The translations under genes were made by a program, and so were the position numbers. A stretch of 64,000 nucleotides of DNA from Candidatus Uhrbacteria bacterium (GTDB lineage Bacteria > Patescibacteriota > Patescibacteriia > UBA9934 > GWF2-40-263), in NCBI GenBank assembly GCA_016188475.1, contig JACPHT010000006.1, positions 68,313 to 132,312 of the forward strand. The letters are read 5' to 3'. Below are positions 10,318-60,164 of the stretch, one piece after another. Within the stretch, counting starts at the first letter, position 1. Each line of letters starts with the position of its first letter. The notes under the pieces are model-generated. The model was not told the DNA's origin. It searched no databases and worked only from the letters and a program-made list of their open reading frames with translations.

Positions 10318-10340
10318 CAGCCTATTCTGGCTGTTTTTTG
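10318..10340 (+). terminator. rho-independent terminator after pilM
   Basis: cagcc-tattct-ggctg hairpin followed by TTTTTTG. Confidence 0.5.
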
Positions 10341-10382
10341 TTTCCTGACTTACGGCAGGCAAGTGTGGTAAACTATAAATCT

Positions 10383-11498: not shown

Positions 11499-11951
11499 AT
11501 GGTTTATCTATCAAAAGAAAAATTAGAAGACTTAAAAGACGAACTTGAAAAACGATCAAGACAAACACGTCGCGAAATAGCGGATATAATTAGCTCTTCA
11601 AAAGAGCTCGGAGATTTATCCGAGAATTTTGAATATCAGGATGCAAAGGAACAGCAAGCTTTAAACGAAGCGCGAGTTGTTCAACTTGAAGACATGATTC
11701 ACAATGCTGTTTTGGTTCAATCAACAACCGGAACCGATTTAATCAATCTTGGATGCACTTTCAAAACTCTTGTGAATGGTGTTGAAAAAATTTTCGAATT
11801 GGTTGGTTCAACCGAGGCTGATCCTATTTCAGGAAAAATCAGCAATGAATCTCCGCTCGGCCAAGCATTTGTCGGACACAGGGAAGGGGACATTATTTCA
11901 ATTAATGTTCCAAACGGTACAATCGAATATAAAATTATTAAAATTTTATAA
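11499..11951 (+). CDS. greA: transcription elongation factor GreA
   Basis: LSKEKLEDLKDEL...coiled coil, GDLSENFEY, C-terminal FKBP-like domain; 150 aa. Confidence 0.9.
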   Translation: MVYLSKEKLEDLKDELEKRSRQTRREIADIISSSKELGDLSENFEYQDAKEQQALNEARVVQLEDMIHNAVLVQSTTGTDLINLGCTFKTLVNGVEKIFELVGSTEADPISGKISNESPLGQAFVGHREGDIISINVPNGTIEYKIIKIL

Positions 11952-11980
11952 TGAACTTGATTGCATATAATACAAAATTT

Positions 11981-12062
11981 TTAATGCAGTTGTTGTACTA
12001 TGTCTCCGGGCCATCGGACTGTCGCCGTTGTTCCCTCCGACACAGCACAACAACTGCATTAA
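11981..12062. repeat. structured hairpin element S (copy 1): 23-bp stem, ~36-nt loop; related copy at 29977..30057
   Basis: ttaatgcagttgttgtactatgtc...gacacagcacaacaactgcattaa. The stem is perfect on the minus strand with two G-U pairs. The loop tccgggcca(t/g)cggact... is shared with copy 2. Confidence 0.6.
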
Positions 12063-12141: not shown

Positions 12142-13617
12142 ATGATAGATGAAACACAAGCAAGGCTCGCGCGACTTCAAGCAATGCGCGATGCTGGAAT
12201 CGAGCCGTATCCATCAACAGCGCAAAGGACAAATACAATTTTCGAATTTTCAAACTCTTTCGAAACTTTCCAAAATTCACAACAAGATTTGTCTTTAGTT
12301 GGCCGAATTAGATTGATTCGAACTCACGGCGGTTTAACTTTTTGTCAGATTCAAGATGGAACAGGGATCGTTCAAATCGTGATTCGCAAGGATCATTTAG
12401 GAGAAACACAATACAAACAGTTTTTGCAAATGATGGATATTGGAGATTTTTTGCAATGTACTGGAAAAGCTTTTGTAACAAAAAAAGGAGAAAAAAGTTT
12501 AGATGTTTTTGTATACGTTCCTCTTGCTAAAGCACTGCTTCCTTTGCCTGAAAAGTGGCACGGACTTTCGGACGTTGAAACACGTTTCAGAAAACGTTAT
12601 TTGGATTTGATAATGAATTCCGACGCTCGCGAGCGTTTACTTGCAAGATCGAAAATTATTGCCGCAATTCGCAACCTGCTTGATTCGCGAGATTTTATTG
12701 AAGTTGAAACACCAACACTTCAGCCTATATATGGAGGTGGTTTTGCACGACCTTTCAAAACTCATCACAACGCGCTTGACGCTGATTTTTTTCTTAGAAT
12801 TTCAGACGAGATGTATCTGAAACGGTTAATTGTTGGTGGTTTTGAAAAAGTTTATGAAATTACAAAGGTTTTTCGCAACGAAGGAATCGATCACGATCAT
12901 AATCCAGAATTTACAATGTTTGAAGCACAGATAGCATATAAAAACTATCTCTATGGAATGGATTTATTTGAAGAGATTTTTGAAACAGTTGCAAAACAAG
13001 CACTTGGAAAAACAAGTGTTCAGCACGGTGAAATAACAATAGAGCTCGCGCGTCCATGGAAAAGAATGAAGCTTGTTGAAGCTGTTGAAAAAATCGGCGG
13101 TCTTGGTTTGGATATATGGTCAAATGAGAAACAAGCGAGAAAAGAATTAAAAAATAAACTTCCAAAGTCTCAACACGAAATTGTTGATTCCATGAAAACC
13201 GTCGGTGAACTTATCGCGTTTGCGTTTGAGGAACTCGTTGAAGAAAAACTTATTCAGCCGACAATAATTTACGATTATCCAGTTGAAGTTTCTCCGCTTG
13301 CGAAAAAAAGTGATGATCCTCGATTTGTCGAACGGTTCGAGGCTTTTGCACTTGGAAGTGAGATTGGAAACAACTATTCTGAACTTAATGATCCGGTTGA
13401 TTTGGAAAAGCGTTTTATTGCAGAAAAAGCTCGGGAGAAAGCTGGTTTTGAAGAAGCCCATCAGACCGATTATGATTATTTGGAAGCGATCAAACATGGA
13501 ATGCCTCCTGTTTGCGGACTTGGAATAGGAGTTGATCGAATGGTCATGCTTTTAACCGGCGCGGAAAACATAAAAGAAGTTATTTTATTTCCGACATTGC
13601 GTCCGGAAATAAAATGA
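12142..13617 (+). CDS. lysS: lysyl-tRNA synthetase (class II)
   Basis: N-terminal OB anticodon-binding domain and class II motifs (..FRNEGID.., ..GLGIGVDRMVMLLTG..); 491 aa. Confidence 0.9.
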   Translation: MIDETQARLARLQAMRDAGIEPYPSTAQRTNTIFEFSNSFETFQNSQQDLSLVGRIRLIRTHGGLTFCQIQDGTGIVQIVIRKDHLGETQYKQFLQMMDIGDFLQCTGKAFVTKKGEKSLDVFVYVPLAKALLPLPEKWHGLSDVETRFRKRYLDLIMNSDARERLLARSKIIAAIRNLLDSRDFIEVETPTLQPIYGGGFARPFKTHHNALDADFFLRISDEMYLKRLIVGGFEKVYEITKVFRNEGIDHDHNPEFTMFEAQIAYKNYLYGMDLFEEIFETVAKQALGKTSVQHGEITIELARPWKRMKLVEAVEKIGGLGLDIWSNEKQARKELKNKLPKSQHEIVDSMKTVGELIAFAFEELVEEKLIQPTIIYDYPVEVSPLAKKSDDPRFVERFEAFALGSEIGNNYSELNDPVDLEKRFIAEKAREKAGFEEAHQTDYDYLEAIKHGMPPVCGLGIGVDRMVMLLTGAENIKEVILFPTLRPEIK

Positions 13618-14005: not shown

Positions 14006-14010
14006 CACAA

Positions 14011-14044
14011 TCACACTTAACTACCGATCGGTAGTTAAGTGTGA
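14011..14044. repeat. perfect 34-bp palindrome P (copy 1 of 3): tcacacttaactaccgatcggtagttaagtgtga
   Basis: Read directly; lies between the cytidylyltransferase stop and the alr start. Same core at 30930..30961 and 32219..32254. Confidence 0.7.
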
Positions 14045-14052
14045 TAATGAAT

Positions 14053-25273: not shown

Positions 25274-27075
25274 TAGCTGAAGTTTATCCACTTCGTCGGA
25301 TGCCGCGAAGATTTGGCCATTTTGATTATTTTGTTTCTGACAAAATATCACTTGAGCGCGGACAATTTGTTTTAATTCCATTTAGATCAACCACATGCGT
25401 TGGTGTTGTAAAACGCCTTAAAGAACAACAATTAAGAGGGATCGCTTTGAAGGATGTATTATCTATTTTAGATGGAATAAAATTAAGAGATGAAGAGCTT
25501 TCGTTTATTGAAACAGTTGCAAAAACGATTTTTCAGTCGGCTTCCACCTTACTTTTTTCAGCGTTTCCTCAACCTTCAAAATATTCACACAAACAATCAA
25601 ACAACATTGCACACGCAACACCGTTAACAGTTCCGAGCATCGAAAGTTCAACTATTGTGAGATTGGCAAACGCAATGACAGAAAGACGGATCGGCTTTAT
25701 TCAAGCTTTTGATCTTAGACGAACCAGCGCGATCATAGCCAAATTTTTATATGATCGTCCGAAACAAAAAGTCGTTATTTTATGTCCAAATGTTCGAGAC
25801 GCGAGGATTGTAGCAAAATTTCTTGAATCTTTTTCTCCATTTTGCGTTACCGGTGAAGAATCAAACAACGAAAGATTTTCAACGTGGAAATTATATAGGA
25901 AAAAAACAAACGGTCTGCTTATCACAACGCGTGTTGGGATATTTTTTTGTGATTCTTCGACGACAACGGTTGTTGTCGTTCGATCCGGCCATCAAAATCA
26001 CGTTGAACACAGACGTAATCCGCGAATCGATGCAAGAGAAATTGCATATTTATTTTCGCAAAATTTTTCAACGCAATTATTTTTTTTCGACGTTGTGCCT
26101 AGAGTAGATGATCTAATTCGATTTAAGGAAGAAAACATACTTCTGTATAATTCAAATACTGAAATTAAATTTGTGCGTCCATCAACGGAAAAATCCGTAT
26201 CAGAACACAATATAATTGTCTCATCAACAACAAAGTCGATTTCAGAAACTATTGAACAACATGGTCGGGTTCTTATTATCTTAAACAAAAAAGGTTATGC
26301 ATGGAGACTGCGTTGCGGAAATTGTGGGTATGTGTTTGTGTGCTCAAAGTGTGGCCATCTAGTACGTGTTGATGAACAAATATTGACGTGCATTCATTGC
26401 GGCACAATTGATCCTGTTCCATTACGTTGCCCGTCTTGTAACTCTTCAAAAATTGAATTTCGTGGTTTTGGAAGCGGTCGACTTGTTGAGATTTTAAAAA
26501 AATGCTTTCCAAAAACTTCAATTCAAGTCATTGATGCAGAAAAAAAGAATTTTGATCCTGGAACGGATATCACCCTTGCAACTCGAGCTTTTATTGAAAA
26601 TCTATTTGATCCTTCACAAAATAACATGTTTCAATGCGTAGTGTATCTAGACGCCGACCTCCCGTTATTTTCTCCAAATTTTCGAAGCGCTGAACAAGCT
26701 TCAATTTATTTTTATGAGTGGTTCGGATTAGCGCGAGCTAATCACGCGAAATATATCGTCCAAACAGAAGAACAAGATTTTTTTGAACAATATCTTTTCG
26801 AGCCCATTAAAATGTTGGGAGAAGAAAAAACGAGAAGATTAAAATTCCAACAACCGCCGTTTGAGTATTGGGTGCAAATAAAGCTCCGCGAAACAGAAGA
26901 AAGAAAACGTGAATTGCAATTAGATTTATTAAGACAACAACTAGAACGAATCCAATGCGTGCGAGTGACGCATGATTTTGTTGTAAGAGTTCCGTTTTCT
27001 CGAATAAAAGAAGTCCAGAAAATACTTGCGGATTTAAATGATCATTTTCTTATTGACACAAATGCTTTTTTGTGA
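25270..27075 (+). CDS. priA: primosomal protein N' (PriA)-like protein with degenerate ATPase motifs
   Basis: N-terminal 3'-DNA-binding region (GQFVLIPFRSTTCVGVV). PriA-type Cys-rich zinc region CGNCGYVFVCSKCGHL...CIHCG...CPSCN. Expected Walker A (GxGKT) and DEEH positions read QAFDLRRTS and VVRSGHQNH. Confidence 0.6.
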   Translation: MIAEVYPLRRMPRRFGHFDYFVSDKISLERGQFVLIPFRSTTCVGVVKRLKEQQLRGIALKDVLSILDGIKLRDEELSFIETVAKTIFQSASTLLFSAFPQPSKYSHKQSNNIAHATPLTVPSIESSTIVRLANAMTERRIGFIQAFDLRRTSAIIAKFLYDRPKQKVVILCPNVRDARIVAKFLESFSPFCVTGEESNNERFSTWKLYRKKTNGLLITTRVGIFFCDSSTTTVVVVRSGHQNHVEHRRNPRIDAREIAYLFSQNFSTQLFFFDVVPRVDDLIRFKEENILLYNSNTEIKFVRPSTEKSVSEHNIIVSSTTKSISETIEQHGRVLIILNKKGYAWRLRCGNCGYVFVCSKCGHLVRVDEQILTCIHCGTIDPVPLRCPSCNSSKIEFRGFGSGRLVEILKKCFPKTSIQVIDAEKKNFDPGTDITLATRAFIENLFDPSQNNMFQCVVYLDADLPLFSPNFRSAEQASIYFYEWFGLARANHAKYIVQTEEQDFFEQYLFEPIKMLGEEKTRRLKFQQPPFEYWVQIKLRETEERKRELQLDLLRQQLERIQCVRVTHDFVVRVPFSRIKEVQKILADLNDHFLIDTNAFL

Positions 27076-27563
27076 CAAAATTGATTACCACTATGAAAAT
27101 GCGTGTTTTAACTCATCCAAACAAAGCACTTCACGAAAAATCTAAGATTGTTGAAGCTGATCAAATTAAAAGTGAAACCACTTTATCGCTTGTTAATGAT
27201 CTTAAGGAAACGATGATTGAAGAAAACGGTGTCGGGATTGCGGCGCCTCAAATTGGTGTTCAAAAACAAATAATAATTATCGAAACAGAAGCCGGCCCAC
27301 AGGCATTCTTTAACCCGACAATCATACGACATTCAATTCGTAAAATTGAAAGTGAAGAAGGATGTTTGTCAGTTCCAGGAGTTTTTGGAATCGTTCGAAG
27401 ATATAGAAATATCACGGTACAAGCACTTGACGAACAAGCTCGTGTTGTCACAATCAAACTTGGCGCTTTTCCTGCGATTGTGTTTCAACACGAAATTGAT
27501 CACTTAAACGGTATTCTTTTCATTGAAAAGGTTGAAAAATTTACCGATCATAAAAATATATAA
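27072..27563 (+). CDS. def: peptide deformylase
   Basis: GVGIAAPQIG, EGCLSVPG and QHEIDHLNG motifs. Confidence 0.92.
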   Translation: MTKLITTMKMRVLTHPNKALHEKSKIVEADQIKSETTLSLVNDLKETMIEENGVGIAAPQIGVQKQIIIIETEAGPQAFFNPTIIRHSIRKIESEEGCLSVPGVFGIVRRYRNITVQALDEQARVVTIKLGAFPAIVFQHEIDHLNGILFIEKVEKFTDHKNI

Positions 27564-27565
27564 AC

Positions 27566-28507
27566 ATGAAGATCGTTTTTTTTGGCACACCATCCTTTGC
27601 GATTCCATTTTTAAAAGCTCTCATAAGCGAGAATGGTTTTGAGGTTATTGGTGTTGTCACTCAACCAGACAAACCTTCAGGACGCGGCAAGAAAATCCTT
27701 TCGTCTGAAGTTAAACAATTCGCCGTACAAAAAGGAATAGCTGTATTTCAATTTGCAAGTTTAAAAAAACCCGAAGCAGTTGAGGCACTTTCTTCATTGT
27801 GCGCTGACGTGTTTGTTGTTGTAGCTTACGGAAAAATTATTCCAAATCAAATTTTAAACATACCTCCTAAAGGTGTCGTTAACGTCCACCCTTCGATGTT
27901 GCCGAAATATAGAGGCCCTTCCCCGATGCAATGGGCAATTTTGAATGGGGATAAAAAAACTGGAATTTCAATAATGTTGTTAGATGAAGGAATGGATACC
28001 GGTCCGATACTCAAACAAACATCAATTGATTTATCCGAAAACGAGACAACAAAATCACTGGAAACAAAAATACACTCTGTTGGACCAAAATTTTTGTGTG
28101 AAGTTTTGAAATCGTACGAAAAAGGAAATTGTGCTCCATTCAAACAAAAAAAAGATGGCGCAAGCGGAACTCGACTTTTAACAAAAGAAGACGGACAAAT
28201 AAATTGGGACACTGACGCAAAAAGCATTGAAAGAATAATTCGAGCTTATACCGAATGGCCAACAGCTTGGTCAAAAATTAAGATAAATAACAAAACAACA
28301 AGACTAAAAATTTTGCAAGCAAAAGTCGTTCAAAAGAATTTTAATAAACCAAACGGAACATTGATCGAAGATGGAGGAAAACTTTTTATCGCTGTCAATT
28401 CAGAAGCTTTAGAACTCATGACTCTTCAGCCTGAAGGGAAATCACAGATGCCGGTGCAGGCATTTCTTGCTGGACGGAAAGATTGGATTGGTAAGATTTT
28501 TGAGTAG
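27566..28507 (+). CDS. fmt: methionyl-tRNA formyltransferase
   Basis: N-terminal formyltransferase domain (NVHPSMLPKYRGPSPMQWAILNGD) plus C-terminal domain; follows def. Confidence 0.9.
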   Translation: MKIVFFGTPSFAIPFLKALISENGFEVIGVVTQPDKPSGRGKKILSSEVKQFAVQKGIAVFQFASLKKPEAVEALSSLCADVFVVVAYGKIIPNQILNIPPKGVVNVHPSMLPKYRGPSPMQWAILNGDKKTGISIMLLDEGMDTGPILKQTSIDLSENETTKSLETKIHSVGPKFLCEVLKSYEKGNCAPFKQKKDGASGTRLLTKEDGQINWDTDAKSIERIIRAYTEWPTAWSKIKINNKTTRLKILQAKVVQKNFNKPNGTLIEDGGKLFIAVNSEALELMTLQPEGKSQMPVQAFLAGRKDWIGKIFE

Positions 28508-29966
28508 CTAAAGATTCAAATTCTTTTGGAACAAAGATCATCGTAAAAAGAATGAACCCCAAACCGATTGGATGATTTAGATACGGAGAAAATATGTGGG
28601 TTGCAAAGAGAAATACAAGACCACAAATCAGCCCAATTGAGATCCAAGAGTGTTCAGATTTCAAAAGCGTCATAAGGCGCTTGTTTATATATAAGAACAA
28701 AAACAAAAATCCAATAGGACCAAGTACTCCCATTTTCAACCACAACTCCAACCAGCCCCATTCCATAGCGTAAGTTGACCATTTTCCATCTACTTGAATT
28801 TCTCTTGCTCTTGGATCGTCAGTCTCAAAAGTTACCTCTTTGCCAAAACCATTTCCTATTATTGGATTTGATGAAATAGTTTGTATCATTGGGTCAACCA
28901 GTTTCCAACGACTTGAAATTGCCACGTCATCATTTTGTGTAAAACGTTTTACAAATAAATCAGATAAATCATGCCCTCCTACGCGTTGAGTTGGAAATGG
29001 AAATAAGACAATGATTGCAATAAAAAATAATGATAAAATTACGGAACTCAAAAAACAAATCAAACACAATTTCAATTTTATAACTTTCTTATTATCTCGA
29101 TGCAAGATAGTTACAAGAACAATAAGCGCAAAAATTATTCCTATCCAAAAACTTCTAGACAAACTTAAAATAAGAGTCGCAAACACCGCACTTAATAAAA
29201 CAACAGCTTGAACAGTTTCTCGTTTAGACTTTATGGAAGAAATCAACGCAAGAATGAATGTTCCAAAAACCAATGAAAAAAATTGAGTTTGAATAAAAAC
29301 ACGATAAATAGATGACCCGAGATTTGTAATTTCGGCTAATCGCACATCTCTTAAAAAAATGTAAGCCGTTTTAATTAACGTCTCTGAAACGTGTGTAAAA
29401 AAATAAAGAATAAAAAATGACAATAAGATATTCCACACTGCTCCGGCCGCGAAAACTTGAAGAAATTGCCCTTTTGATTTTTGGTTCCAATTGATTGAAA
29501 AAATTGGAAATGCGTAAAGCAAATAAAAATACGCGTTCCCGTCCTTAAAAACATTTAGCGCTTCATTCGAAATAAAACCTTTAACGAATCCGATTGATAT
29601 TGCAATCGCTAAAATCAAAAATGCAAAAATATCTTTCGATCTAACCAATGGTTTTCGTTTTGTTTTGATCAAATAAATTAAATAACCAATAAAAAAACCA
29701 ACAAAAACAGACATCCTTAGAGAAACGTTAAATGAAAATATTTCTGTTGATATTAGTTGCCCATGAGGGCCTGAAAAAAGTTCCAAAAAAACACCAAGAA
29801 GACCAAAAACTGGATTATATGCTGTAAAAAAAATCATGATCAAAACAATGAGAACCAAAAAGATGTCTGATCCTCCAACGAAATACGAAAGTAATGAAGT
29901 CAAAAACAAAACAAACAAAACGCAAAGCGACAAATAGAAAGTTTTGCCAAAGAATTGATCAATCAT
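28416..29966 (-). CDS. O-antigen ligase/polymerase (WaaL/Wzy_C)-like polytopic membrane protein
   Basis: About 12 TM helices; LSLSRSFWIGI and the periplasmic loop ...YAMEWGWLELWLKMGVLG resemble the Wzy_C/WaaL signature. Its 3' end overlaps fmt convergently by 92 bp. Confidence 0.55.
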   Translation of the reverse strand: MIDQFFGKTFYLSLCVLFVLFLTSLLSYFVGGSDIFLVLIVLIMIFFTAYNPVFGLLGVFLELFSGPHGQLISTEIFSFNVSLRMSVFVGFFIGYLIYLIKTKRKPLVRSKDIFAFLILAIAISIGFVKGFISNEALNVFKDGNAYFYLLYAFPIFSINWNQKSKGQFLQVFAAGAVWNILLSFFILYFFTHVSETLIKTAYIFLRDVRLAEITNLGSSIYRVFIQTQFFSLVFGTFILALISSIKSKRETVQAVVLLSAVFATLILSLSRSFWIGIIFALIVLVTILHRDNKKVIKLKLCLICFLSSVILSLFFIAIIVLFPFPTQRVGGHDLSDLFVKRFTQNDDVAISSRWKLVDPMIQTISSNPIIGNGFGKEVTFETDDPRAREIQVDGKWSTYAMEWGWLELWLKMGVLGPIGFLFLFLYINKRLMTLLKSEHSWISIGLICGLVFLFATHIFSPYLNHPIGLGFILFTMIFVPKEFESLATQKSYQSNLSVQQEMPAPASVISLQAEES

Positions 29967-29976
29967 ACAATTCAGT

Positions 29977-30057
29977 TAAATCAGTTGTCGTGCTATGTCT
30001 CCGGGCCAGCGGACTCTTCGCCGCTGTTCTCTACGACATAGCACGACAACTGATTTA
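29977..30057. repeat. structured hairpin element S (copy 2): perfect 22-bp stem, ~36-nt loop
   Basis: taaatcagttgtcgtgctatgtc...gacatagcacgacaactgattta. Shares loop and stem positions with copy 1 apart from compensatory changes. Confidence 0.6.
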
Positions 30058-30072
30058 GAAATCTTATTAGTA

Positions 30073-30918
30073 TCACATTGGTTTTAATAATGAAGCAATC
30101 ACACTGAATATCCAAAAAACTGGCTCTAGCAAAGTAAAGATTGAACCTATTACAATTCCAAAATGTTTACGCACGTACCTTCTAACGCTTCTGCGAAACA
30201 TGTTTTGTTTTTTTAGAGTTCCAACTCGATCAAAACTGCTTCCCTTTTTATGCTTTGCTTCAATATTTGCAAAATAGTGAACACGAAATCCAGAATTTTT
30301 CGCGCGTTTGCAATAATCAACTTCTTCGTACCACATAAAAAAATCATCATCCAGAAGGCCAATTCGATTGATCAAGGATCTTTTTATGCAAAAAAACGCA
30401 CCCATTACCTGATCAACATCAGCATCTCTTGAATAATCAAAATCATCCATTCGCCAGTTTGAAACTACTCGAACCGATGGAATTAAATGGTGAACTTTAA
30501 ACAAAAGAGCCAGTTGATTAGTTGGTGTTGGAAAACGCCACACGCATTTTTGTTGTGTCCCGTCAAAATTTTTCAGTGAAACACCACCGATGCCGATATC
30601 GGTTTCTTTGTCCATGGCATCTCTTAATTTATAAATTGAATCTTGAGTAAAAATAATGTCAGGATTTATTAAGACGATATAATCACCGTGCGCAGATTTA
30701 ATTCCTAAATTACATCCGCCGGCAAAACCAAGATTCACATTACTATAAATTATTCGAACACATGGAAAACGCATTGCGATTTTTGAGAGATCATCCCCGG
30801 AATTGTTTTCAACAACAATTACTTCAATATCATCTTTTGTGTGATTTGCAAAAAGACTTTCGAGCATGCGTTCGAGATAATCTGCTGTTTTATAATTGAC
30901 GGTAATTGTCGAGATCAT
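30073..30918 (-). CDS. family 2 glycosyltransferase
   Basis: ISTITVNYKTADYL...IEVIVVENNSGDD...INPDI; GT-A DxD-type architecture. Confidence 0.8.
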   Translation of the reverse strand: MISTITVNYKTADYLERMLESLFANHTKDDIEVIVVENNSGDDLSKIAMRFPCVRIIYSNVNLGFAGGCNLGIKSAHGDYIVLINPDIIFTQDSIYKLRDAMDKETDIGIGGVSLKNFDGTQQKCVWRFPTPTNQLALLFKVHHLIPSVRVVSNWRMDDFDYSRDADVDQVMGAFFCIKRSLINRIGLLDDDFFMWYEEVDYCKRAKNSGFRVHYFANIEAKHKKGSSFDRVGTLKKQNMFRRSVRRYVRKHFGIVIGSIFTLLEPVFWIFSVIASLLKPM

Positions 30919-30929
30919 AATTCAGACAT

Positions 30930-30961
30930 TTCACTTAACTACCGATCGGTAGTTAAGTGAA
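30930..30961. repeat. perfect 32-bp palindrome P (copy 2 of 3): ttcacttaactaccgatcggtagttaagtgaa
   Basis: Lies between two GT2 genes; the TAA stop of the upstream GT2 (30953-30955) sits inside the right arm. Confidence 0.7.
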
Positions 30962-31675
30962 ATTCTTAAATTTTAATCGATGTTTTATTTTAATCACTTT
31001 TTCTGCATTTTTAAAATCTCGTATCGTTTTTGGAGTCCATCCAATTGCGTACCACGGAATTCGATATAAAATAGATGGCGTCCATTTTGAAATATTTTTT
31101 CTTCCACTGACGTTTCTCACATAAAATAAAATCTCGTTAATCTCCATTCCAATTTTATTATTTTCAAGCATTGTCAACCACAAATCCCAATCTTGCAAAC
31201 GCTTAATTTTCGGATCAAATCCAGGGAAATCCTGTTTTCTTATGAGCGAGGTCGTATGTATGTAATTCGATTTACGAAGTTTGTCAGCGTCAAAGGTTTG
31301 AGCTGGAAATTTCTTATTATCCCAAAGAAATCCGCAATAAACATACGAAACGTCTTTGTGTGTTTCCAAAACAGAAAACATTTTTTCAAGCATGTTTGGT
31401 TTGAAGAAAATATCTGCATCAGAAAAAAGTAAAAAATTTCCAGTTGCTAGTTTAGCGCCGTTATTTCTTGCTGTCGGAGCACCTTGATTGTTTTGAAACA
31501 CGTATTTAATTTTATCACCAAAACGATCAATACGAATTTTTGTATCATCTGTTGATCCATCATCAACAACAATAATTTCTTTTGGAAGAAGTGTCTGCGA
31601 CAATAAAGAATCAATACAGTTTTCTATTGTCTTTGTATGTTGGAAGGTTGGAATGATCACCGAAATCTCATTCAT
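30953..31675 (-). CDS. family 2 glycosyltransferase
   Basis: ISVIIPTFQHTKTIENCIDSLLSQT...EIIVVDDGSTDDT. Start taken at the internal Met (MNEISVIIP) rather than the ORF-track start at 31711. Confidence 0.8.
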   Translation of the reverse strand: MNEISVIIPTFQHTKTIENCIDSLLSQTLLPKEIIVVDDGSTDDTKIRIDRFGDKIKYVFQNNQGAPTARNNGAKLATGNFLLFSDADIFFKPNMLEKMFSVLETHKDVSYVYCGFLWDNKKFPAQTFDADKLRKSNYIHTTSLIRKQDFPGFDPKIKRLQDWDLWLTMLENNKIGMEINEILFYVRNVSGRKNISKWTPSILYRIPWYAIGWTPKTIRDFKNAEKVIKIKHRLKFKNFT

Positions 31676-32769
31676 AAATACGGCTCGAGTTTTGCAAACT
31701 GTTGTGAACAAGTGAAATTTTGTTCAACATGTTCTTTTGCTTGTTTTCCTAATCTGATTCGCATTTCAGTTGAATTAGAAAGAACAGAAATTGCGCGACA
31801 CAAGTCTTCATGATCGTTTGGTTTAACTAAAAGTCCGGTTTGATTGTTAATTATAGCCTCGTTAATTCCGCTAATTTGAGTGCTGATTGACGGGACTTCA
31901 TAATTTGCGGCTTCTATAAACACAAATCCAAAACCTTCTTTGTCTTTTACATCATCGATAACCGGCATTAAAAATATGTCGGCGTTCATGTAAAAATTTA
32001 CTAATTGCTCATCGTTCACTAAACCATGAAATACAACCTCGTCCAAATGAAATTGTCCTGCGAGATCTTTGAGAGTTTGCAACATTGGCCCATCGCCAAC
32101 AATGTCATATTGAAAACTTGGGATTGATTTGGATTTTTTAAGTTCAGCAAGCGCCATCAAAACTTGTGTGTGACCCTTTCGTTTTACCAATCGACTGACA
32201 GTCAAGAATCTAAGCGTTATCACACTTAACTCCCGATCGGTAGTTAAGTGTGATTGGGTTTTTGTTACAGATTCCAAACATGGATACACAACGAGAGGTA
32301 AGGTTACGTCAAAAATTTCTGCGACTTCTTGCGCGAGTGATCGTGAATTTGCAACCACAACTCGCGCGTGCTTAAAAACAACTTTTGCAATTTGTTTTTT
32401 TATAAAGTTTGAACACGCGAGCCGAACATCCATTCCGTGAACAAAAATAACATACTGCTTTTTCGTAAACAAAGAAGAAAAAAATGCCGCTGTCCCAAAA
32501 GGAAGGACATGACTTAAAAGCGCGATATCATAAGATTGTCGAAATGTAAAAAACAATCTAACTGATTCAATCCACTTCGGCCAAAAAAATGGATTTAGAA
32601 GTTGCTGTTCAAGAACGGGAAACGGAGTTGTTTGCGCTGAATTTTTCACCGAAGAAATAACAAGAATGCGCGAAGAAAAATGTGTCGCCAGTTTTGATAA
32701 ATATCTAGCAACTCCTCCATTATTTGGTGGAAAATCCGGTGTTAGCAATAATAATCGATTTTCCCTCAT
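31672..32769 (-). CDS. family 4 (GT-B, GT1-superfamily) glycosyltransferase carrying an in-frame palindromic insertion
   Basis: LLLLTPDFPPNNGGVARY N-terminus and C-terminal ...SRLVKRKGHTQVL...GDGP...E(X7)E-type region. Residues SHLTTDRELSVI are encoded by palindrome P copy 3. Confidence 0.7.
   Translation of the reverse strand: MRENRLLLLTPDFPPNNGGVARYLSKLATHFSSRILVISSVKNSAQTTPFPVLEQQLLNPFFWPKWIESVRLFFTFRQSYDIALLSHVLPFGTAAFFSSLFTKKQYVIFVHGMDVRLACSNFIKKQIAKVVFKHARVVVANSRSLAQEVAEIFDVTLPLVVYPCLESVTKTQSHLTTDRELSVITLRFLTVSRLVKRKGHTQVLMALAELKKSKSIPSFQYDIVGDGPMLQTLKDLAGQFHLDEVVFHGLVNDEQLVNFYMNADIFLMPVIDDVKDKEGFGFVFIEAANYEVPSISTQISGINEAIINNQTGLLVKPNDHEDLCRAISVLSNSTEMRIRLGKQAKEHVEQNFTCSQQFAKLEPYL
32219..32254. 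repeat. 36-bp palindrome P (copy 3 of 3, one arm mismatch), inside the GT4 coding frame
   Basis: atcacacttaactcccgatcggtagttaagtgtgat. Length is a multiple of 3 and it is read through without a stop. Confidence 0.65.
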
Positions 32770-50986: not shown

Positions 50987-52086
50987 AAAACAATTGATTG
51001 TCCCGATGTTACTGCGCGCTGTGGTTTATCAAATTTAACCACAGCTTTTTTTTGTGGAAGAAAAGTTACTGCGCAAGATTGAAGCGGCTGACGATAACGA
51101 ATTCTCGCTTCGCATTTGATTTTTTTTGGAAGTGATTCTACTAGCAAATTAATTTGTTCAATTTCCAGTTCATCTTTATACAAAGACGGATGATAATTAC
51201 TTGTGACAACAAGCTCTTTCGTTTTCTCACGTTTTTCAACAACATAGTAAGGATTTCCACCACCGATATTCAAGCCATGGCGTTGACCGATTGTGAAAAA
51301 ATTTATTCCGGAATGTTCACCAACGATTTTTCCATCTGAAGTTACTATTTTTCCAGGATCCTCTTTAATTCTTGTTTTTAAGAATTCACGCATCTCAACT
51401 TCACCAACAAAACAAATTCCAACGCTGTCTTTTTTTTCAGCCACATCGAGCCCGAGCTTTCGAGCCTTTGCGCGAACTTCTGGTTTTGTCATTTCTCCAA
51501 CAGGAAAAATTATTCTCGGTAAAATTTTTTTATCAATCGCCCACAAAAAATACGTTTGGTCCTTGTTTGAATCTTTCCCAGCTAAAACACACTTTTTGTC
51601 ATTGCGAGGGAGCGCAGCGACCGAAGCAATCTCTTTTCCTAGATTTCTTCGCTTCGATCGCAATGACGGAAAGGTGGCTATACGAGCATAATGCCCCGTC
51701 GCAACATACCCACACCCAAGCCGATCAGCTTCTCTCACAAAACGATCAAACTTGATGAATTTGTTGCACATAACGTCCGGATTTGGCGTTCGTCCTGCAG
51801 ATGATTCGCGAAATAAATATTCGATAACATCTCGCCGATATTCTTTTTCAAAATCAAAAGTTAAAAATGGAATTCCGAGTTTGGCCGCAACACGCGCCGC
51901 ATCACGCCTTTCTATTTTCCAACCGCACTCTTTGAACTCTGGTCCTTCACATTCATTTTCAGACCAATTTTTCATGAAAGCTCCGATCACTTCATATCCT
52001 TGTTCCAACAACAAAGCCGCTGACACTGACGAGTCAACACCTCCTGACATTCCAACAAGAACTTTTTTCTTCCTTGTCATAATCAT
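50944..52086 (-). CDS. mnmA: tRNA-specific 2-thiouridylase MnmA
   Basis: PP-loop VLVGMSGGVDSSV and catalytic Cys regions; 380 aa. Confidence 0.9.
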   Translation of the reverse strand: MIMTRKKKVLVGMSGGVDSSVSAALLLEQGYEVIGAFMKNWSENECEGPEFKECGWKIERRDAARVAAKLGIPFLTFDFEKEYRRDVIEYLFRESSAGRTPNPDVMCNKFIKFDRFVREADRLGCGYVATGHYARIATFPSLRSKRRNLGKEIASVAALPRNDKKCVLAGKDSNKDQTYFLWAIDKKILPRIIFPVGEMTKPEVRAKARKLGLDVAEKKDSVGICFVGEVEMREFLKTRIKEDPGKIVTSDGKIVGEHSGINFFTIGQRHGLNIGGGNPYYVVEKREKTKELVVTSNYHPSLYKDELEIEQINLLVESLPKKIKCEARIRYRQPLQSCAVTFLPQKKAVVKFDKPQRAVTSGQSIVFYDGEVMLGGGIIE

Positions 52087-53456
52087 GAAAACGTTCTTTT
52101 CAAATTTTCAAATTTCTCTGAATCTTCACGCAGAACAAAAAAATCAGTGAAATTTAGCTTCTCATTATATTTTTGTAGCAAATCTGAATACTTAAAAATA
52201 GGAATATACTCCACGCCATTTACCAATCGTTTTGCAACATAGATCATCGTTGCACGCTCTGAATCGCCTTCCCCAAAATGAGAAAGTTCGTTCAAAACAG
52301 AATAAGTAAAATACCTGATCTTGTTTTGATAACAAAATTCTGACAAACCCGAGAGCAAAATTTGATCTTCTTCTTTGGATTTTTGTAAACGCAAAATTCG
52401 TTTCGCTGGAATTCGTTTTACAATATGCTCTGACCAATAATTTTTCGGATTTTTTGATGACTCAAAAATTTGCTCAATCACAGGACCGTCGCGCAACTGC
52501 GTATATAAGTATGGATCCGTGGGAATTTTCAATGAGATCTCTCTGGTTCGAATTGCTTCTTCCAAATAATGTGAAAATCCCGCCTTTGTTTTATGATAAT
52601 AAACTTGATCTATCATGTGATAACGAGCAAGAAGCATGTCTTCATACGCTCGCACTCCGTTTTCAGAAAGAGTCATGATCAGTTGATCATCGTGCTGTGC
52701 AACCCCAAACGATGAGATCAACCAATCAACATCATAATTCCCATACGCGACTCCACAAAAATAACTGTCACGCAAAAGATAATCCATTCGATCAGAATCT
52801 GCCTCGCCAGAAATAAGTCCTTTGAGAACTCGTCCGAGCCCAGGAATACGTACTGAAATTTTTTCCAAGTATTCAGACGGAAAAATATCTTTGTGCATGA
52901 TCGATGCGACATCTTGTGCGAACGATTTTTCCAAAACACCTTCTTGAACAAGAGTTTGAATCAATAGAATGCTGTAATCTTCGTGAGCGGATTTTCGATT
53001 AGGTTTTTGTTTCCACCAAGACCAGTCAAATGGAAAATCCTCGAGCGATGGAAAAATATATTCTGACGCGTGAGAAAACGGACCGTGCCCAATGTCGTGT
53101 AAAAGTCCTGCAACACGAACACGAGAACGAAGGGCTTGAATGTCAACATCAAAAATTGGAACGTTTCGTGAATCTGAAAACAAATGATCAAATAGTCGTC
53201 CGGCAACATGCATTGTCCCAATCGAGTGTAAAAATCTGTCGTGAGTTCCACCAGGATAAACATAAGAATGCAAAAAACCAAGCTGGCTTATGAAACGCAA
53301 ACGCTGAAAAAACGGATGATCAATGATCGTCCGTTCAAATTCGCTAAATGAAATGCGATGATGAATTGGATCGCGAAGTTCGTATGAGGACATAAAAAAG
53401 TAGCTGATACTTCTTTCTTCTTGATACTTGCTACCAATTATCATTCGAAATGTCAA
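52083..53456 (-). CDS. HD-domain phosphohydrolase, dGTPase-like (dNTP triphosphohydrolase family)
   Basis: HDRFLHSIGTMHVAG...LLHDIGHGPFSH...DSDRMDYLLRDSYFCGV HD motifs. 4-bp overlaps with the genes on both sides, so co-operonic. Confidence 0.75.
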   Translation of the reverse strand: MTFRMIIGSKYQEERSISYFFMSSYELRDPIHHRISFSEFERTIIDHPFFQRLRFISQLGFLHSYVYPGGTHDRFLHSIGTMHVAGRLFDHLFSDSRNVPIFDVDIQALRSRVRVAGLLHDIGHGPFSHASEYIFPSLEDFPFDWSWWKQKPNRKSAHEDYSILLIQTLVQEGVLEKSFAQDVASIMHKDIFPSEYLEKISVRIPGLGRVLKGLISGEADSDRMDYLLRDSYFCGVAYGNYDVDWLISSFGVAQHDDQLIMTLSENGVRAYEDMLLARYHMIDQVYYHKTKAGFSHYLEEAIRTREISLKIPTDPYLYTQLRDGPVIEQIFESSKNPKNYWSEHIVKRIPAKRILRLQKSKEEDQILLSGLSEFCYQNKIRYFTYSVLNELSHFGEGDSERATMIYVAKRLVNGVEYIPIFKYSDLLQKYNEKLNFTDFFVLREDSEKFENLKRTFS

Positions 53457-57128: not shown

Positions 57129-58022
57129 TCAGCTTCTCTTCTTCATCTTCTCCCAAACCACGAGCAGTGGACTTGCTAAAAAAATTGAAGAGTATGTTCC
57201 AACTGTGATTCCAATAATAAGGGCAAGCGCAAAAGGTTGCGTGCTATCGCCGCCAAAAATGAAAATTGCAATCAAAGCAAGGATTGTTGTCAAACTTGTA
57301 TTGAGTGATCTAAGAAGAGTTTGCTCAATGCTCATTTCTACTGTTTCCGATAATGTATGAGCTGTTCTACGAAGCAAGTTCTCGCGTGTGCGGTCAAAAA
57401 CAACGATTGTATCGTTGATTGAATAGCCAAGAACTGTCAGTGCGGCCGCGATAATCGCGGCACCGACTTCCCATCCAAACCAAACACCAAATAACGCGAA
57501 TGCCCCGATCATGATAACAACATCATGAAATGCGGTTAGGACTGTAATGGTTGCATATTTCCACGAAGCAACAGGTTCCGAAACCTTACGAAACGCCCAT
57601 GCAACATAAAGTCCAATCAAAATAAGCGTCAAAATAACACCAATAGTCGCTGTGCGTCTCAGTTCGCTCCCGATCACTGGTCCAACTGATTCAAAACTCA
57701 ACTCTGTTAAATTACCATGGGCTGTTTTTATTGCACCTAAAACCGATTGATGCTCATCTTCCGAAAGCATCTGCGTGCGAATCAAAAAACCATTTTCACC
57801 TGACGTTTGAATCGTGGCGTCTTTATATCCAGCATCATCAAACGTCTGTTTCATTGCGCCAACACTTACAGGTTGATCGAATTTAATTTCAATGAGACTT
57901 CCACCTGTAAAATCAACTCCATATTTCAATCCCGGATAAACAATAAGAACAAGGCTCGCAACAACGAGAAATCCTGAAAGAAAAAACCAGTAATTTCTAT
58001 TTTTGATAACTTGTAATTTCAT
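57129..58022 (-). CDS. secF: protein-export membrane protein SecF
   Basis: 297 aa, 6 TM helices, N-terminal ...GVDFTGGSLIEIKF periplasmic domain signature. Confidence 0.85.
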   Translation of the reverse strand: MKLQVIKNRNYWFFLSGFLVVASLVLIVYPGLKYGVDFTGGSLIEIKFDQPVSVGAMKQTFDDAGYKDATIQTSGENGFLIRTQMLSEDEHQSVLGAIKTAHGNLTELSFESVGPVIGSELRRTATIGVILTLILIGLYVAWAFRKVSEPVASWKYATITVLTAFHDVVIMIGAFALFGVWFGWEVGAAIIAAALTVLGYSINDTIVVFDRTRENLLRRTAHTLSETVEMSIEQTLLRSLNTSLTTILALIAIFIFGGDSTQPFALALIIGITVGTYSSIFLASPLLVVWEKMKKRS

Positions 58023-58023
58023 A

Positions 58024-58162
58024 CCCGGTAGTACAACAATGATTTATATTATCGATTAATTATTTCTTTTGCTAACATTGGTTCGACTACTCATGTTGAA
58101 TGTCATACAGGCTGTGTTAAAGCACGGAAGAACAGGCGACAGATCATTGTTGTCCTACCGGG
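58024..58162 (-). promoter_or_regulatory. ~139-bp structured element E (copy 1) with 20-bp terminal inverted repeats, abutting the secF start codon
   Basis: cccggtagtacaacaatgat ... atcattgttgtcctaccggg (1 mismatch). The 3' arm (mRNA sense) ends 1 nt before the secF ATG. The secD TAG stop lies in the other arm. Confidence 0.5.
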
Positions 58163-60164
58163 CATTATTCGATTTTTTTACGCAAAAGAGCGCAAACTTC
58201 CGCGCCCATTTCCATGCGAGAACATTTTTGAGATAAACACGACTTACCATTATCGCACTAAACATGCTCAATATAACTCCGATCGCAAGTGTTAGCGCAA
58301 ATCCGCGAATAAAACTTGAACTAAACCAGTACAAAACAGCGGCCGCTATCAATGTTGTTAGGTTTCCATCACGAATTGAAGTCCACGCGCGCGTGAACGC
58401 CTCATCAGTCGCTGAACCGAAATCTCGTCCAGAATGAAGCTCTTCCTTCAAGCGCTCAAAAATAAGAACGTTAGCGTCAACTGCCATACCAATCGACAAA
58501 ACAAATCCCGCTATTCCAGCAAGCGTTATTGTGACATCAAAAAAACGATATGCCGCAAGGTTTATAACTGCGAAAAACAAAAGCGCAAGAGTCGCAATAA
58601 GTCCTGGCAATCTATAAAAAACTAGCATGAAAAGCCCAACAAGAATTAACCCAATAAGCCCAGCGTTGATACTTTTTGCAAGTGATACAGCTCCGAGAGT
58701 TGGACCAACGGTTTGTTGTGAAACCAAATTTATCGGAACTGGCAAAGCTCCAGCATTCAAATCCTGCGCAAGCAAACGCGCTTCATCAACAGTGAAATCA
58801 CTAGTTATTACAGCTTGACCGCCATAGATTGCCTGTTGAACTCTCGGAGCTGAAATAAGTCCTCCATCAAGAAAAATCGCTATCGGTTCTCCAACATGAG
58901 CCTCTGTTAGTTTTCCAAATAAATCAGAACCTTCATCGTTGAAGTCAAGCAAAACATTCGGCGCTCCTGATCTTTGGTCAAATTGAACTGACGCTCGCTT
59001 TAGGTGTTTTCCTGAAAGCGCTGTATTTTTCCAAGGTGAACTTGGAACAATGTCAGCTTCGGTTGTGAACGGCATCAAAATGCGCTTTACAGTTACAGCC
59101 GAGACAGGACGCTCATCGCGTTTATAAATTATGTGAAAACCAAACTCTGATTCAACAACATCTGAAATTTCTCCAACTGGAGTTGAAAGAGCCGCAAGCG
59201 CAAAAGCGTCAACGTACTTATCTGGTGTTGCCCACCCAAGATCTTCCACTCCTTCGAGTGTTGAGAAGCTTTCCGGAGTTGCAGATTTTTTCAAATTTTG
59301 AATTTTGATTGAAGCTTCAATTTCAGGGATTGGTTTTTCACATCGCAGTTTACCTTCGTAGCAAACAAGAACATGCGAAAGCAACATTTCTTTTGTATCA
59401 CCAACTTCTTCAACACGGAAAATACTAATACCTTCGTTAGTTTCCAAAACCGAATTTGAAATTTGACCGGCCTTCAACTTTTTTTGTTTGGCTTGAATAA
59501 AATAATCTGAAAATTGAGAATTTGCTGTAATATTTTTGATTGTTGATTTTGCGAGTGGAACTTTGCTATTTTCGGAAATAAGTTTGTCAAAATCTTCGCC
59601 AGCGAGCGCTCGGTCCAAAACAGCATTCGCAGATGCTCGATCATTTTTTTGCATTTCTTTAAGTTGCGTTTTCTCGTCATCGGTCAAAGCGCGTCCAGGC
59701 TCTTTAACAGGTTCCTTAAATTCAAGAACTGGTGTTTTGCCGATTTGCTCAATAGCTTGTGTAACATCTTTGATTCCTGCGAGTTCGATTACCAAACGAT
59801 ATGTGCCGCCAGTTGAGATTGTTTGAACAATAGGCTCTGAAACTCCAAACGAATTAACACGACGTTCGATCACGTTTTTAACTCCATCGAGAGCGTTAAC
59901 TCGCTCTGTAGCAGGTATTTCCGTCATGTCAGCCTCGTAAACAAGATGCGTTCCACCCTGAAGATCGAGTCCAAGACGAAAAGGAGTTTCGGCAATTTTC
60001 ATTCCATCAAGACTAACAGCGCGCACAGCTTGATTCCACAACTGTGGAAAATCATAGCCAGCGAACACAAGTGTCAAGACAATCATGAGTACGCCAATGA
60101 TTCGTCTTGCCCAAGGTTTTTTAGTTTTATTAACTGACTTTCTTTTAATTTTCCATGTTTGCAT
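58155..60164 (-). CDS. secD: protein-export membrane protein SecD (long form)
   Basis: 669 aa; N-terminal TM helix, large periplasmic region, C-terminal 5-TM SecD/SecF core (..LIGLILVGLFMLVFYR...). Confidence 0.85.
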   Translation of the reverse strand: MQTWKIKRKSVNKTKKPWARRIIGVLMIVLTLVFAGYDFPQLWNQAVRAVSLDGMKIAETPFRLGLDLQGGTHLVYEADMTEIPATERVNALDGVKNVIERRVNSFGVSEPIVQTISTGGTYRLVIELAGIKDVTQAIEQIGKTPVLEFKEPVKEPGRALTDDEKTQLKEMQKNDRASANAVLDRALAGEDFDKLISENSKVPLAKSTIKNITANSQFSDYFIQAKQKKLKAGQISNSVLETNEGISIFRVEEVGDTKEMLLSHVLVCYEGKLRCEKPIPEIEASIKIQNLKKSATPESFSTLEGVEDLGWATPDKYVDAFALAALSTPVGEISDVVESEFGFHIIYKRDERPVSAVTVKRILMPFTTEADIVPSSPWKNTALSGKHLKRASVQFDQRSGAPNVLLDFNDEGSDLFGKLTEAHVGEPIAIFLDGGLISAPRVQQAIYGGQAVITSDFTVDEARLLAQDLNAGALPVPINLVSQQTVGPTLGAVSLAKSINAGLIGLILVGLFMLVFYRLPGLIATLALLFFAVINLAAYRFFDVTITLAGIAGFVLSIGMAVDANVLIFERLKEELHSGRDFGSATDEAFTRAWTSIRDGNLTTLIAAAVLYWFSSSFIRGFALTLAIGVILSMFSAIMVSRVYLKNVLAWKWARKFALFCVKKSNNAR

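Follow-up and report, generated by a model that had tools for sequence, protein, structure and literature searches.

Two structured hairpins in intergenic spacers

We analysed a 64,000-nucleotide (nt) stretch of a Candidatus Uhrbacteria genome (GenBank assembly GCA_016188475.1, contig JACPHT010000006.1, positions 68,313 to 132,312; the whole 64-kb stretch is called the window below) that carries two copies of a structured hairpin element. Copy 1 (11981..12062, minus strand) lies between greA (11499-11951, plus strand) and lysS (12142-13617, plus strand), and copy 2 (29977..30057, minus strand) between a GT2 gene (30073-30918, minus strand) and a Wzy_C/O-antigen-ligase-like gene (28416-29966, minus strand). 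A first-pass annotation made from the letters alone had placed both hairpins between these gene pairs, calling the last gene waaL-like, and its coordinates proved exact. The window's GreA matches, at 100% identity, a protein annotated from Candidatus Uhrbacteria, a group of tiny bacteria living in groundwater.

Both are short-form copies in which a stem of 23–24 bp encloses a conserved asymmetric core of 40 nt (copy 1) or 41 nt (copy 2). In an inverted-repeat search, the arms of copy 1 (TTAATGCAGTTGTTGTACTATGTC at 11981..12004 and GACACAGCACAACAACTGCATTAA at 12039..12062) span 24 nt each, are 92% complementary and have 34 nt in between, and those of copy 2 (TAAATCAGTTGTCGTGCTATGTC at 29977..29999 and GACATAGCACGACAACTGATTTA at 30035..30057) span 23 nt each, are 100% complementary and have 35 nt in between. 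Read on the minus strand, the core is GUC-GGA-GGG-AA-CAACGG-CGACAGU-CCGAUG-G-CCC-GGA-GAC in copy 1 (12002..12041) and GUC-GUA-GAG-AA-CAGCGG-CGAAGAGU-CCGCUG-G-CCC-GGA-GAC in copy 2 (29997..30037). The window contains the string TATGTCTCCGGGCCA(T/G)CGGACT exactly two times, and none of 100 shuffled versions contains it.

Fold z-scores against shuffled controls ranged from -6.3 to -11.1 for both copies on both strands, and the stem differences between the two copies are compensated. Copy 1 folds more stably on the minus strand (-49.9 kcal/mol) than on the plus strand (-37.1 kcal/mol) because its two A.C mismatches become G.U there. On each of these points (structure beyond chance, compensatory stem changes, a better fold of copy 1 as minus-strand RNA with two G-U pairs) the annotation was right. 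A covariance model of the element, run with filters off, recovered only these two copies in the window (copy 1, 87.3 bits, E = 3e-20; copy 2, 92.8 bits, E = 1e-21), a low density of two per 64 kb.

Neither copy is followed by a U-tract and terminator scans report neither, in line with the annotation's statement that these are not classical terminators; an intrinsic terminator was rejected on these grounds and because other copies sit at divergent sites and inside genes. Upstream of copy 1, a promoter scan of the relevant strand showed nothing promoter-like. The G-rich strand, on which the stem mismatches are compatible with wobble pairing, is the minus strand in both copies, antisense to greA and lysS and co-directional with the GT2 and Wzy_C genes. 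The two copies thus have the same absolute orientation despite lying beside genes on opposite strands, so that the element is antisense to the operon at copy 1 and sense at copy 2.

A short tail beyond the hairpin of copy 1 (CATATAATACAAAATTT, 11964..11980; read by eye, with no statistics) is also found outside a copy of the same subfamily at a different locus (L107:805-888), so the repeat unit of this subfamily probably reaches beyond the stem. A Logan contig from the window's own population (L163:13774-13823) stops within copy 1, where the model match is cut at its 5' end, as is expected of a repeat that breaks assemblies.

A family of hairpins with covarying stems and a nearly invariant core

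The covariance model, built from 29 copies, gave 87 matches at E ≤ 1e-10 in 587 kb of Uhrbacteria-type loci (individual fetched loci carry L labels and Tgt homologues carry P labels), and at least 18 copies lie within the fetched pieces of a single metagenome-assembled genome (MAG), JAGVFR01. An exact-pattern scan of one genome per species yielded about 40 true copies, plus chance matches in high-GC organisms, and the true copies were confined to four Patescibacteria MAGs: JAGVFR01 'DeMMO2_27', JACRJU01 and JACQXU01 'Candidatus Uhrbacteria', and VGKU01 'Parcubacteria'. A stricter pattern added 48 stretches from a handful of groundwater and lake metagenomes. Viral contigs held no exact core match in the pattern search, on which basis a phage origin was rejected.

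The first-pass annotation had called for searches of Rfam and of related genomes, and had named as one refuting case a known palindrome family of many copies. Rfam 15 gave no match at the gathering score, either for the window or for four loci; a cutoff of E ≤ 10 brought up only chance-level miRNA and U6 matches for the short and the long form, so a known RNA family was rejected. The element does belong to a dispersed palindromic family with at least 87 copies, but not to a known one. We found no paper on such repeats in Uhrbacteria or Patescibacteria, which is weak evidence of novelty given incomplete literature coverage.

On the window's minus strand, the consensus reads 5'-stem, GUC, GGA, GGG, AA, CA(G/A)CGG, CGAnnAGU, CCG(C/U)UG, G, CCC, GGA, GAC, stem-3'. 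It describes a long outer helix, a symmetric 3x3 purine loop (G.A / N.G / A.G), a GGG/CCC helix, a 2x1 loop and a 6-bp helix capped by a 7–8-nt purine-rich loop. Stems range from 16 to 24 bp across the family (the commonest subfamily has AAAGGAGCGGTTTGTRCCAT) and diverge, whereas the core is nearly invariant and not palindromic.

Covariation extends through the stem. In an ungapped alignment of 29 copies, not fitted to the model, changes on both sides occur in 20 of the 23 outer-helix pairs, and the covariation score is 0.516, compared with 0.162 after shuffling and about 0.11 with slid partners. Among 86 distinct copies, whose alignment was fitted to the covariance model and so favours structure, double changes occur in 27 of 32 pairs, all 23 outer-helix pairs vary, pairing reaches 92.7% of cells (shuffles, 70.8%) and the covariation score 0.597 (0.171 shuffled, 0.06–0.12 slid partners). 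The GUC/GAC base of the core covaries too (GUU/AAC, GCC/GGC, AUC/GAU), as does one inner-helix pair (G-C vs A-U). The compensatory changes that the annotation had noted between two copies are thus seen family-wide. Together these data show that the stem needs only to pair and that in the core the sequence itself is kept.

The short form measures about 82–85 bp and the long form about 175 bp. In long forms (L082, L056, L120, L148), a two-hairpin module of about 90 nt replaces one A of the AA loop; the flanks and stems of L134 and L120 are 100% identical and a 90-nt module is their sole difference. Two other copies (L136, L054) carry a GC-rich hairpin at the opposite single-G bulge. We rejected a conserved coding peptide as the explanation of the core, since variation in the apical loop, which makes the core 40 or 41 nt long, shifts the frame and both orientations occur. 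An inverton (an invertible promoter) was likewise rejected: the 35–40 nt separating the arms leave too little length for synapsis by a recombinase, the arm sequences are not conserved and nothing like a -10 sequence is present in the core.

Whole hairpins with the same stem occur at unrelated loci (copy 1 and L107:805-888; also L008, L052 and L093). A family-wide stem consensus, together with conservation that fades gradually outward from the core, identifies the whole hairpin as the repeat unit. Many copies occupy the entire gap between two genes. Truncated copies are also present (L078 and L084, with no second half downstream), and no longer version carrying an open reading frame (ORF) was found. 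At L116:1192-1326, two core-pattern matches are separated by 87 nt, and the model accepts just the first as a full hairpin, which suggests a copy in tandem or one duplicated in part. In two loci, pairs of copies bracket highly expressed housekeeping units (L009:4570-7423 and L020:3938-7402; rpsB-tsf-gap and ribonucleotide reductase). Three copies of these pairs share identical flanks of more than 15 nt, and larger duplicated units therefore exist.

A pairing constraint on one strand

Stem mismatches are strongly asymmetric. On the G-rich strand there are 52 G.U, 10 A.C and 22 other mismatches against 786 Watson-Crick pairs, and the first set of copies had already given a G.U:A.C ratio of about 29:3. 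This bias is the same for copies whose G-rich strand falls on the G-rich side of the local skew (28:3) and for those where it falls on the C-rich side (20:6), for which reason we rejected replication-driven mutational skew as its cause.

Orientation is random with respect to neighbouring genes (13 copies in the same direction as both, 11 opposite to both, 4 at convergent and 4 at divergent sites) and with respect to local GC skew (21:17). In tgt genes that carry the element in the opposite orientation, the wobble signature flips together with the core. Because the signature follows the core and is indifferent to gene and skew direction, it marks a pairing constraint on one strand of the element. 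This constraint acts on the single G-rich strand, as RNA or as single-stranded DNA, regardless of host transcription or replication.

In the window, GC skew changes sign at about 27000-28500, where genes switch from mostly plus to mostly minus strand and two convergent genes overlap (28416-28507); the region looks like a terminus-like point of replication convergence. Copies 1 and 2, in the same orientation, flank this switch at about 27–28.5 kb.

Gain, loss, inversion and decay at orthologous sites

Comparison of orthologous sites shows that copies are gained, lost, inverted and deleted between close relatives. Between greA and lysS, two more distant relatives (L109, L111) have overlapping genes and no element. 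In L107 and L108 (GreA 86% identical) the spacer holds only a short palindrome, TTGATGCGATTGAACCGCATCAA, which corresponds to window copy 1 reduced to its outer stem, without the centre. In DeMMO2_27 (L014), with flanks 91–93% identical to those of L107, the same spacer carries a different subfamily in the orientation opposite to the window copy. Conversely, L107 has beside znuA a copy with the stem of window copy 1, at a site that is empty in the window.

The second site varies similarly. The GT2 and Wzy_C genes are 1 nt apart in L114; L113 has a short copy oriented as in the window, but its stem is identical at only 13/23 positions; and L112 combines the stem of L113 with an inverted core in a partly deleted long form. 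Since the stem is self-complementary, the inverted core of L112 amounts to inversion of the whole element. Copy 2 of the window is less similar to its L113 orthologue than to copy 1.

Further filled and empty alleles were found elsewhere. The pilM-yibE spacer of the window, downstream of a canonical terminator, is empty (10318..10362), as it is in L107, and its DeMMO2_27 orthologue is filled (L052:240-324), with the copy sitting between the canonical terminator CAGCCAATTCTGGCTGTTTTT and the next promoter. L104 is filled where L048 and L155 are empty, and L151 and L157 form another such pair. These comparisons indicate that copies arise as insertions of about 85–96 nt and not by point mutation. 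Decay proceeds by central deletion, as in the greA-lysS remnant of L107 and in the Tgt peptide P0245.

Some of these alleles could be read differently, with the core as a tiny element that inserts into the centre of resident palindromes and the stems as hairpins of the host. The L107/L108 spacer does have only the palindrome, L112 and L113 have the same stem with opposite cores, and loop-less palindromes are present in the window. Yet whole stems are common to copies at unrelated loci, the family-wide stem consensus fades outward with no sharp boundary, a flipped core within the same self-complementary stem is equally an inverted whole element, and the L107 remnant and the P0245 peptide are better explained by central deletions. 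The empty sites in the pilM-yibE spacer and in an HD-domain gene hold no palindrome, which, with the stems shared between unrelated loci, largely refutes this reading; we consider it very improbable.

Copies inside genes

The HD-domain gene of the window (52083-53456, minus strand) has an empty site at 52987..52999, where its L137 orthologue carries a 96-nt in-frame copy; the protein with the insert reads ...WWKQKQ[IKIETRRSCDTTSEGTAATVRWPGDVGSQLLP]NRKAVHEDY..., and the gene is uninterrupted at this point in both the window and L152. The upstream part of the L137 gene (minus strand) holds a further in-frame insert, rich in GC (..LPKGDYPPTPMLRRAGRGLPALLDDE..), that the window orthologue lacks and that may be related to the GC-rich hairpins nested in L136:6729-6853 and L054:1709-1837.

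A second protein, Tgt (PF01702), carries the element in one loop, between ERSLRWAKRCK and LFGIVQG, in 25 of its 120 best homologues. Fourteen of the 120 have it in one orientation (MSPGHRTVAAVPSD; one of the 14 is a long form), 7 in the opposite orientation (MSEGTAATVRWPGD) and 2 in other reading frames, and 2 hold a partial element; P0245, which is not among the 25, has a centre-deleted remnant. The plain loop has 25–26 residues, and Tgt length among close homologues runs from 359 to 480 amino acids (aa). Copies of both orientations were confirmed on DNA. All tgt copies, the long form included, are stop-free and in frame, and the consensus element has no stop codon in any of six frames. We therefore rejected an intron or excised element; being in frame and stop-free, intragenic copies are evidently translated and not spliced out. 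The element thus occupies spacers between genes as well as protein loops that tolerate it, in the latter case in frame.

The same Tgt loop is 31–89 aa long in many Patescibacteria homologues (P0241-P0360) and contains other recurrent peptides, ..SL(H/N)DSTT(P/Q)RL.. and ..EIAS..PRNDE.., which suggests that other small insert families also use it. The loop is therefore a hot spot tolerant of inserts, and its copies are at least as likely to stem from repeated insertion as from one ancient event.

The first-pass annotation had implied a locus-specific small RNA or a 3' untranslated region processing site; random orientation, gain and loss between close relatives and translated intragenic copies speak against both. 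A broader version, in which the family is a multi-copy structured RNA that works for the host, either in cis (as a stabiliser of mRNA, an RNase III site or an unconventional terminator) or in trans by binding a protein through its purine loops, would account for the very strong covariation around a nearly invariant core, for a core better conserved than the adjacent tgt coding sequence, for the variable optional stems that spring from a single junction and for the many copies placed exactly between genes. It fits poorly with an orientation that is random relative to the transcribed strand: genomes differ, at greA-lysS as well as in tgt, in whether the wobble-compatible strand is sense or antisense. 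Close relatives lack copies at orthologous sites, intragenic copies are translated rather than removed, most copies have no U-tract in genomes where ordinary short terminators are present, and no Rfam family matches. We consider a host RNA unlikely.

Uptake sequences typically occur in both orientations and inside genes. Those two features are shared by the hairpins, these bacteria have type IV pilus genes (PilM), and the core is conserved whatever its coding context or orientation, all of which would suit a DNA-level site for the host, for instance a hairpin or cruciform to which a protein of nucleoid, topoisomerase or uptake type binds (compare bacterial interspersed mosaic elements (BIMEs) and repetitive extragenic palindromic (REP) sequences with gyrase and IHF). 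Recognition of double-stranded DNA, however, needs neither covarying arms of 20 bp nor a wobble bias confined to one strand, new copies appear by insertion of about 85–96 nt instead of by point mutation, and their density is low (2 copies in 64 kb) and their presence dispensable at orthologous sites. Such a site seems quite improbable to us.

A probable mobile palindromic repeat

We favour, with modest confidence, the reading that the hairpins are lineage-restricted, non-coding, non-autonomous mobile palindromic repeats of Candidatus Uhrbacteria, previously undescribed. The reasons are the many copies, the whole units at unrelated loci and the insertion/deletion polymorphism between close relatives, together with the occurrence of both orientations at a site, of nested, truncated and centre-deleted copies, the absence of an orientation rule and the in-frame tolerance within genes. 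In these respects the element behaves like selfish mobile DNA rather than like a gene-specific regulatory RNA.

A conserved non-palindromic tip, a stem free in sequence and a one-strand wobble bias suggest that the propagating or maintained form would be one strand folded into a hairpin. New copies would be made via a single-stranded intermediate, the G-rich strand in hairpin form, and the core's unpaired purine loops would be what a trans-acting enzyme, encoded at another place in the genome, recognises. To our knowledge, HUH/Y1 single-strand transposition (IS200/IS605, REP/RAYT) and attC recombination are the only established bacterial mechanisms that act on one-strand hairpins, and HUH/Y1 is the only one for imperfect hairpins that needs neither terminal inverted repeats nor target duplications. 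Because the established mechanisms are limited to these two, a 'peel and paste' route by an HUH/Y1-transposase-like enzyme on single-stranded DNA, similar to REP/RAYT or IS200/IS605, would be our preferred candidate. Effects on the host would be mostly passive: a very stable hairpin in any transcript that crosses the element, and an extra surface loop where a copy inside a gene is translated.

Several observations weigh against this reading. No transposase or partner gene was seen in the genome pieces read (2–20 kb), where the ORFs beside copies are housekeeping genes; a transposase between paired copies was rejected, the intervening genes being recR, rpsB-tsf-gap and ribonucleotide reductase (nrd). 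Known single-stranded DNA transposons show a replication-linked orientation bias, and the bias expected of single-strand transposition is absent here (21:17). No target-site duplication or conserved flanking tetranucleotide could be defined from the filled/empty pairs or the flank columns: columns 1-4 and 82-85 of alignment A2 are not conserved, the pairs show no consistent direct repeat, and AT-rich palindromic ends mask any TA duplication. The optional extra hairpins always arise from the same internal loop, a pattern typical of functional RNAs. Finally, five tgt copies in the same orientation are 92% identical in the core, 43–46% in the arms and 65–69% in the flanking coding sequence, which, if they descend from one ancient insertion, implies purifying selection or in-place homogenisation that a purely selfish element would not predict. 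Many independent events in the tgt loop weaken this selection argument and do not remove it.

Tolerance of G.U also fits RNA at least as well as DNA, and makes an RNA intermediate of the same mobile element a serious alternative, albeit one we judge unlikely. The G-rich strand would then be transcribed, folded, recognised by a reverse transcriptase or another RNA-templated enzyme and rewritten as DNA. The ratio of tolerated mismatches (52:10), the purine-rich internal loops (G.A / N.G / A.G), the optional hairpins from one junction, which look like RNA architecture, and an orientation unrelated to replication all agree with such a route. No promoter, no poly-A or other hallmark of retro-elements and no reverse-transcriptase gene appeared in the loci read, and transcription of the strand required would be rare for copies lying antisense to tightly packed operons. 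Moreover, G.T is the least destabilising mismatch in single-stranded DNA as well.

A bolder possibility, which we judge fairly unlikely, is that the tip is the handle of a hitherto unrecognised enzyme–substrate system of Patescibacteria: either hairpin transposition that reads the loop and ignores the stem sequence, or a host-functional multi-copy structured RNA or single-stranded DNA site that is selected even inside genes. If true, the one-strand wobble would be the footprint of a process undescribed in bacteria.

The genomes of Patescibacteria are streamlined, at about 1 Mb, and are thought to hold little dispensable DNA. This repeat family, and apparently others, nonetheless colonise their short spacers and permissive protein loops. 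The repeat is also a source of assembly breaks, over-extended ORF calls and odd protein insertions in MAGs, for example in Tgt lengths. Its architecture is unusual for a small repeat, and the invariant non-palindromic tip, freely covarying stem and one-strand wobble could be used as bait for a mobilising or binding protein. With their filled, empty and inverted alleles, related populations provide a natural setting for measuring how selfish DNA turns over in uncultivated bacteria.

Comparison with known repeats

A close parallel in behaviour is with REP sequences and REPINs of the REP/RAYT system: like the present element, they are short, dispersed, mostly extragenic palindromes in tens of copies or more that form hairpins as single-stranded DNA or RNA, have strand-specific imperfections, lack their own coding sequence and show concerted similarity within a genome. 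Compensatory changes in the hairpin, seen here, are also known from REPINs (Bertels & Rainey 2011, PMC3116915). The conservation pattern is reversed, however: in REPINs, the two REP sequences are conserved and the spacer between them less so (PMC3116915), whereas here the tip is nearly invariant and the long stem variable. The unit is 82–85 nt compared with 20–40 nt for REP, there is no GTAG-type flanking motif and no BIME-like array, and some copies are intragenic; no RAYT gene was seen, within genome pieces of 2–20 kb only. Membership in the REP/REPIN family is not supported, although the element works like REPINs.

Rickettsia palindromic elements (RPE; Ogata et al. 2000), which Delihas 2011 (PMC3184786) lists, are similar as palindromic repeats of about 100 nt that occupy a small streamlined genome, both between genes and in frame within genes, where they are translated. 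This likeness is one of behaviour, and the host here is Patescibacteria and not Rickettsia. The present element differs in its sharply conserved asymmetric tip, rapid stem covariation and one-strand wobble bias, and in occupying one protein loop in both orientations and several reading frames.

[quoted passage not shown] MITEs keep their terminal inverted repeats, which are transposase binding sites, vary in the middle and commonly generate a duplicated target such as TA. In the present element the ends are most variable, the middle is conserved and no duplication is definable. Recognition by hairpin shape plus a few unpaired bases on one strand, with covarying stems, would be a likeness to attC sites and to the subterminal hairpins of IS200/IS605. 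The element has neither the cassette arrays nor the conserved R''/R' ends (RYYYAAC/GTTRRRY) of attC, its copies being solitary between housekeeping genes, and it lacks the paired left and right ends flanking a transposase gene and the replication orientation bias of IS200/IS605.

Other repeats in these genomes

A second palindrome family lies at gene boundaries in the window (14010-14045, 32219-32254 and 30913-30978). It comprises two loop-less palindromes of 36 bp, ATCACACTTAACTACCGA|TCGGTAGTTAAGTGTGAT (one perfect, one 94% complementary), and a third copy that is longer and imperfect; the covariance model scored these as generic hairpins only. Another hairpin (58021-58165), with 23-bp arms (91% complementary) around 99 nt, spans the gap between two minus-strand genes. 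The gene at this hairpin encodes PF02355 SecD_SecF_C in an identical Logan contig, and the last letters of the hairpin interior, GGAAGAACAGGCGACAG, are similar to the core's 5' half. Both this hairpin and the 36-bp palindromes were rejected by the model as family members and hence as a third window copy. Lastly, short iterated motifs, (GGCTAA/TTAGCC)n and (GTCATT/AATGAC)n, fill the spacers of 'empty' alleles and the flanks of some copies (L157:1780-1900, L003:5550-5700, L084, L078 and L104:2790-3000), suggesting further classes of repeats in these genomes.

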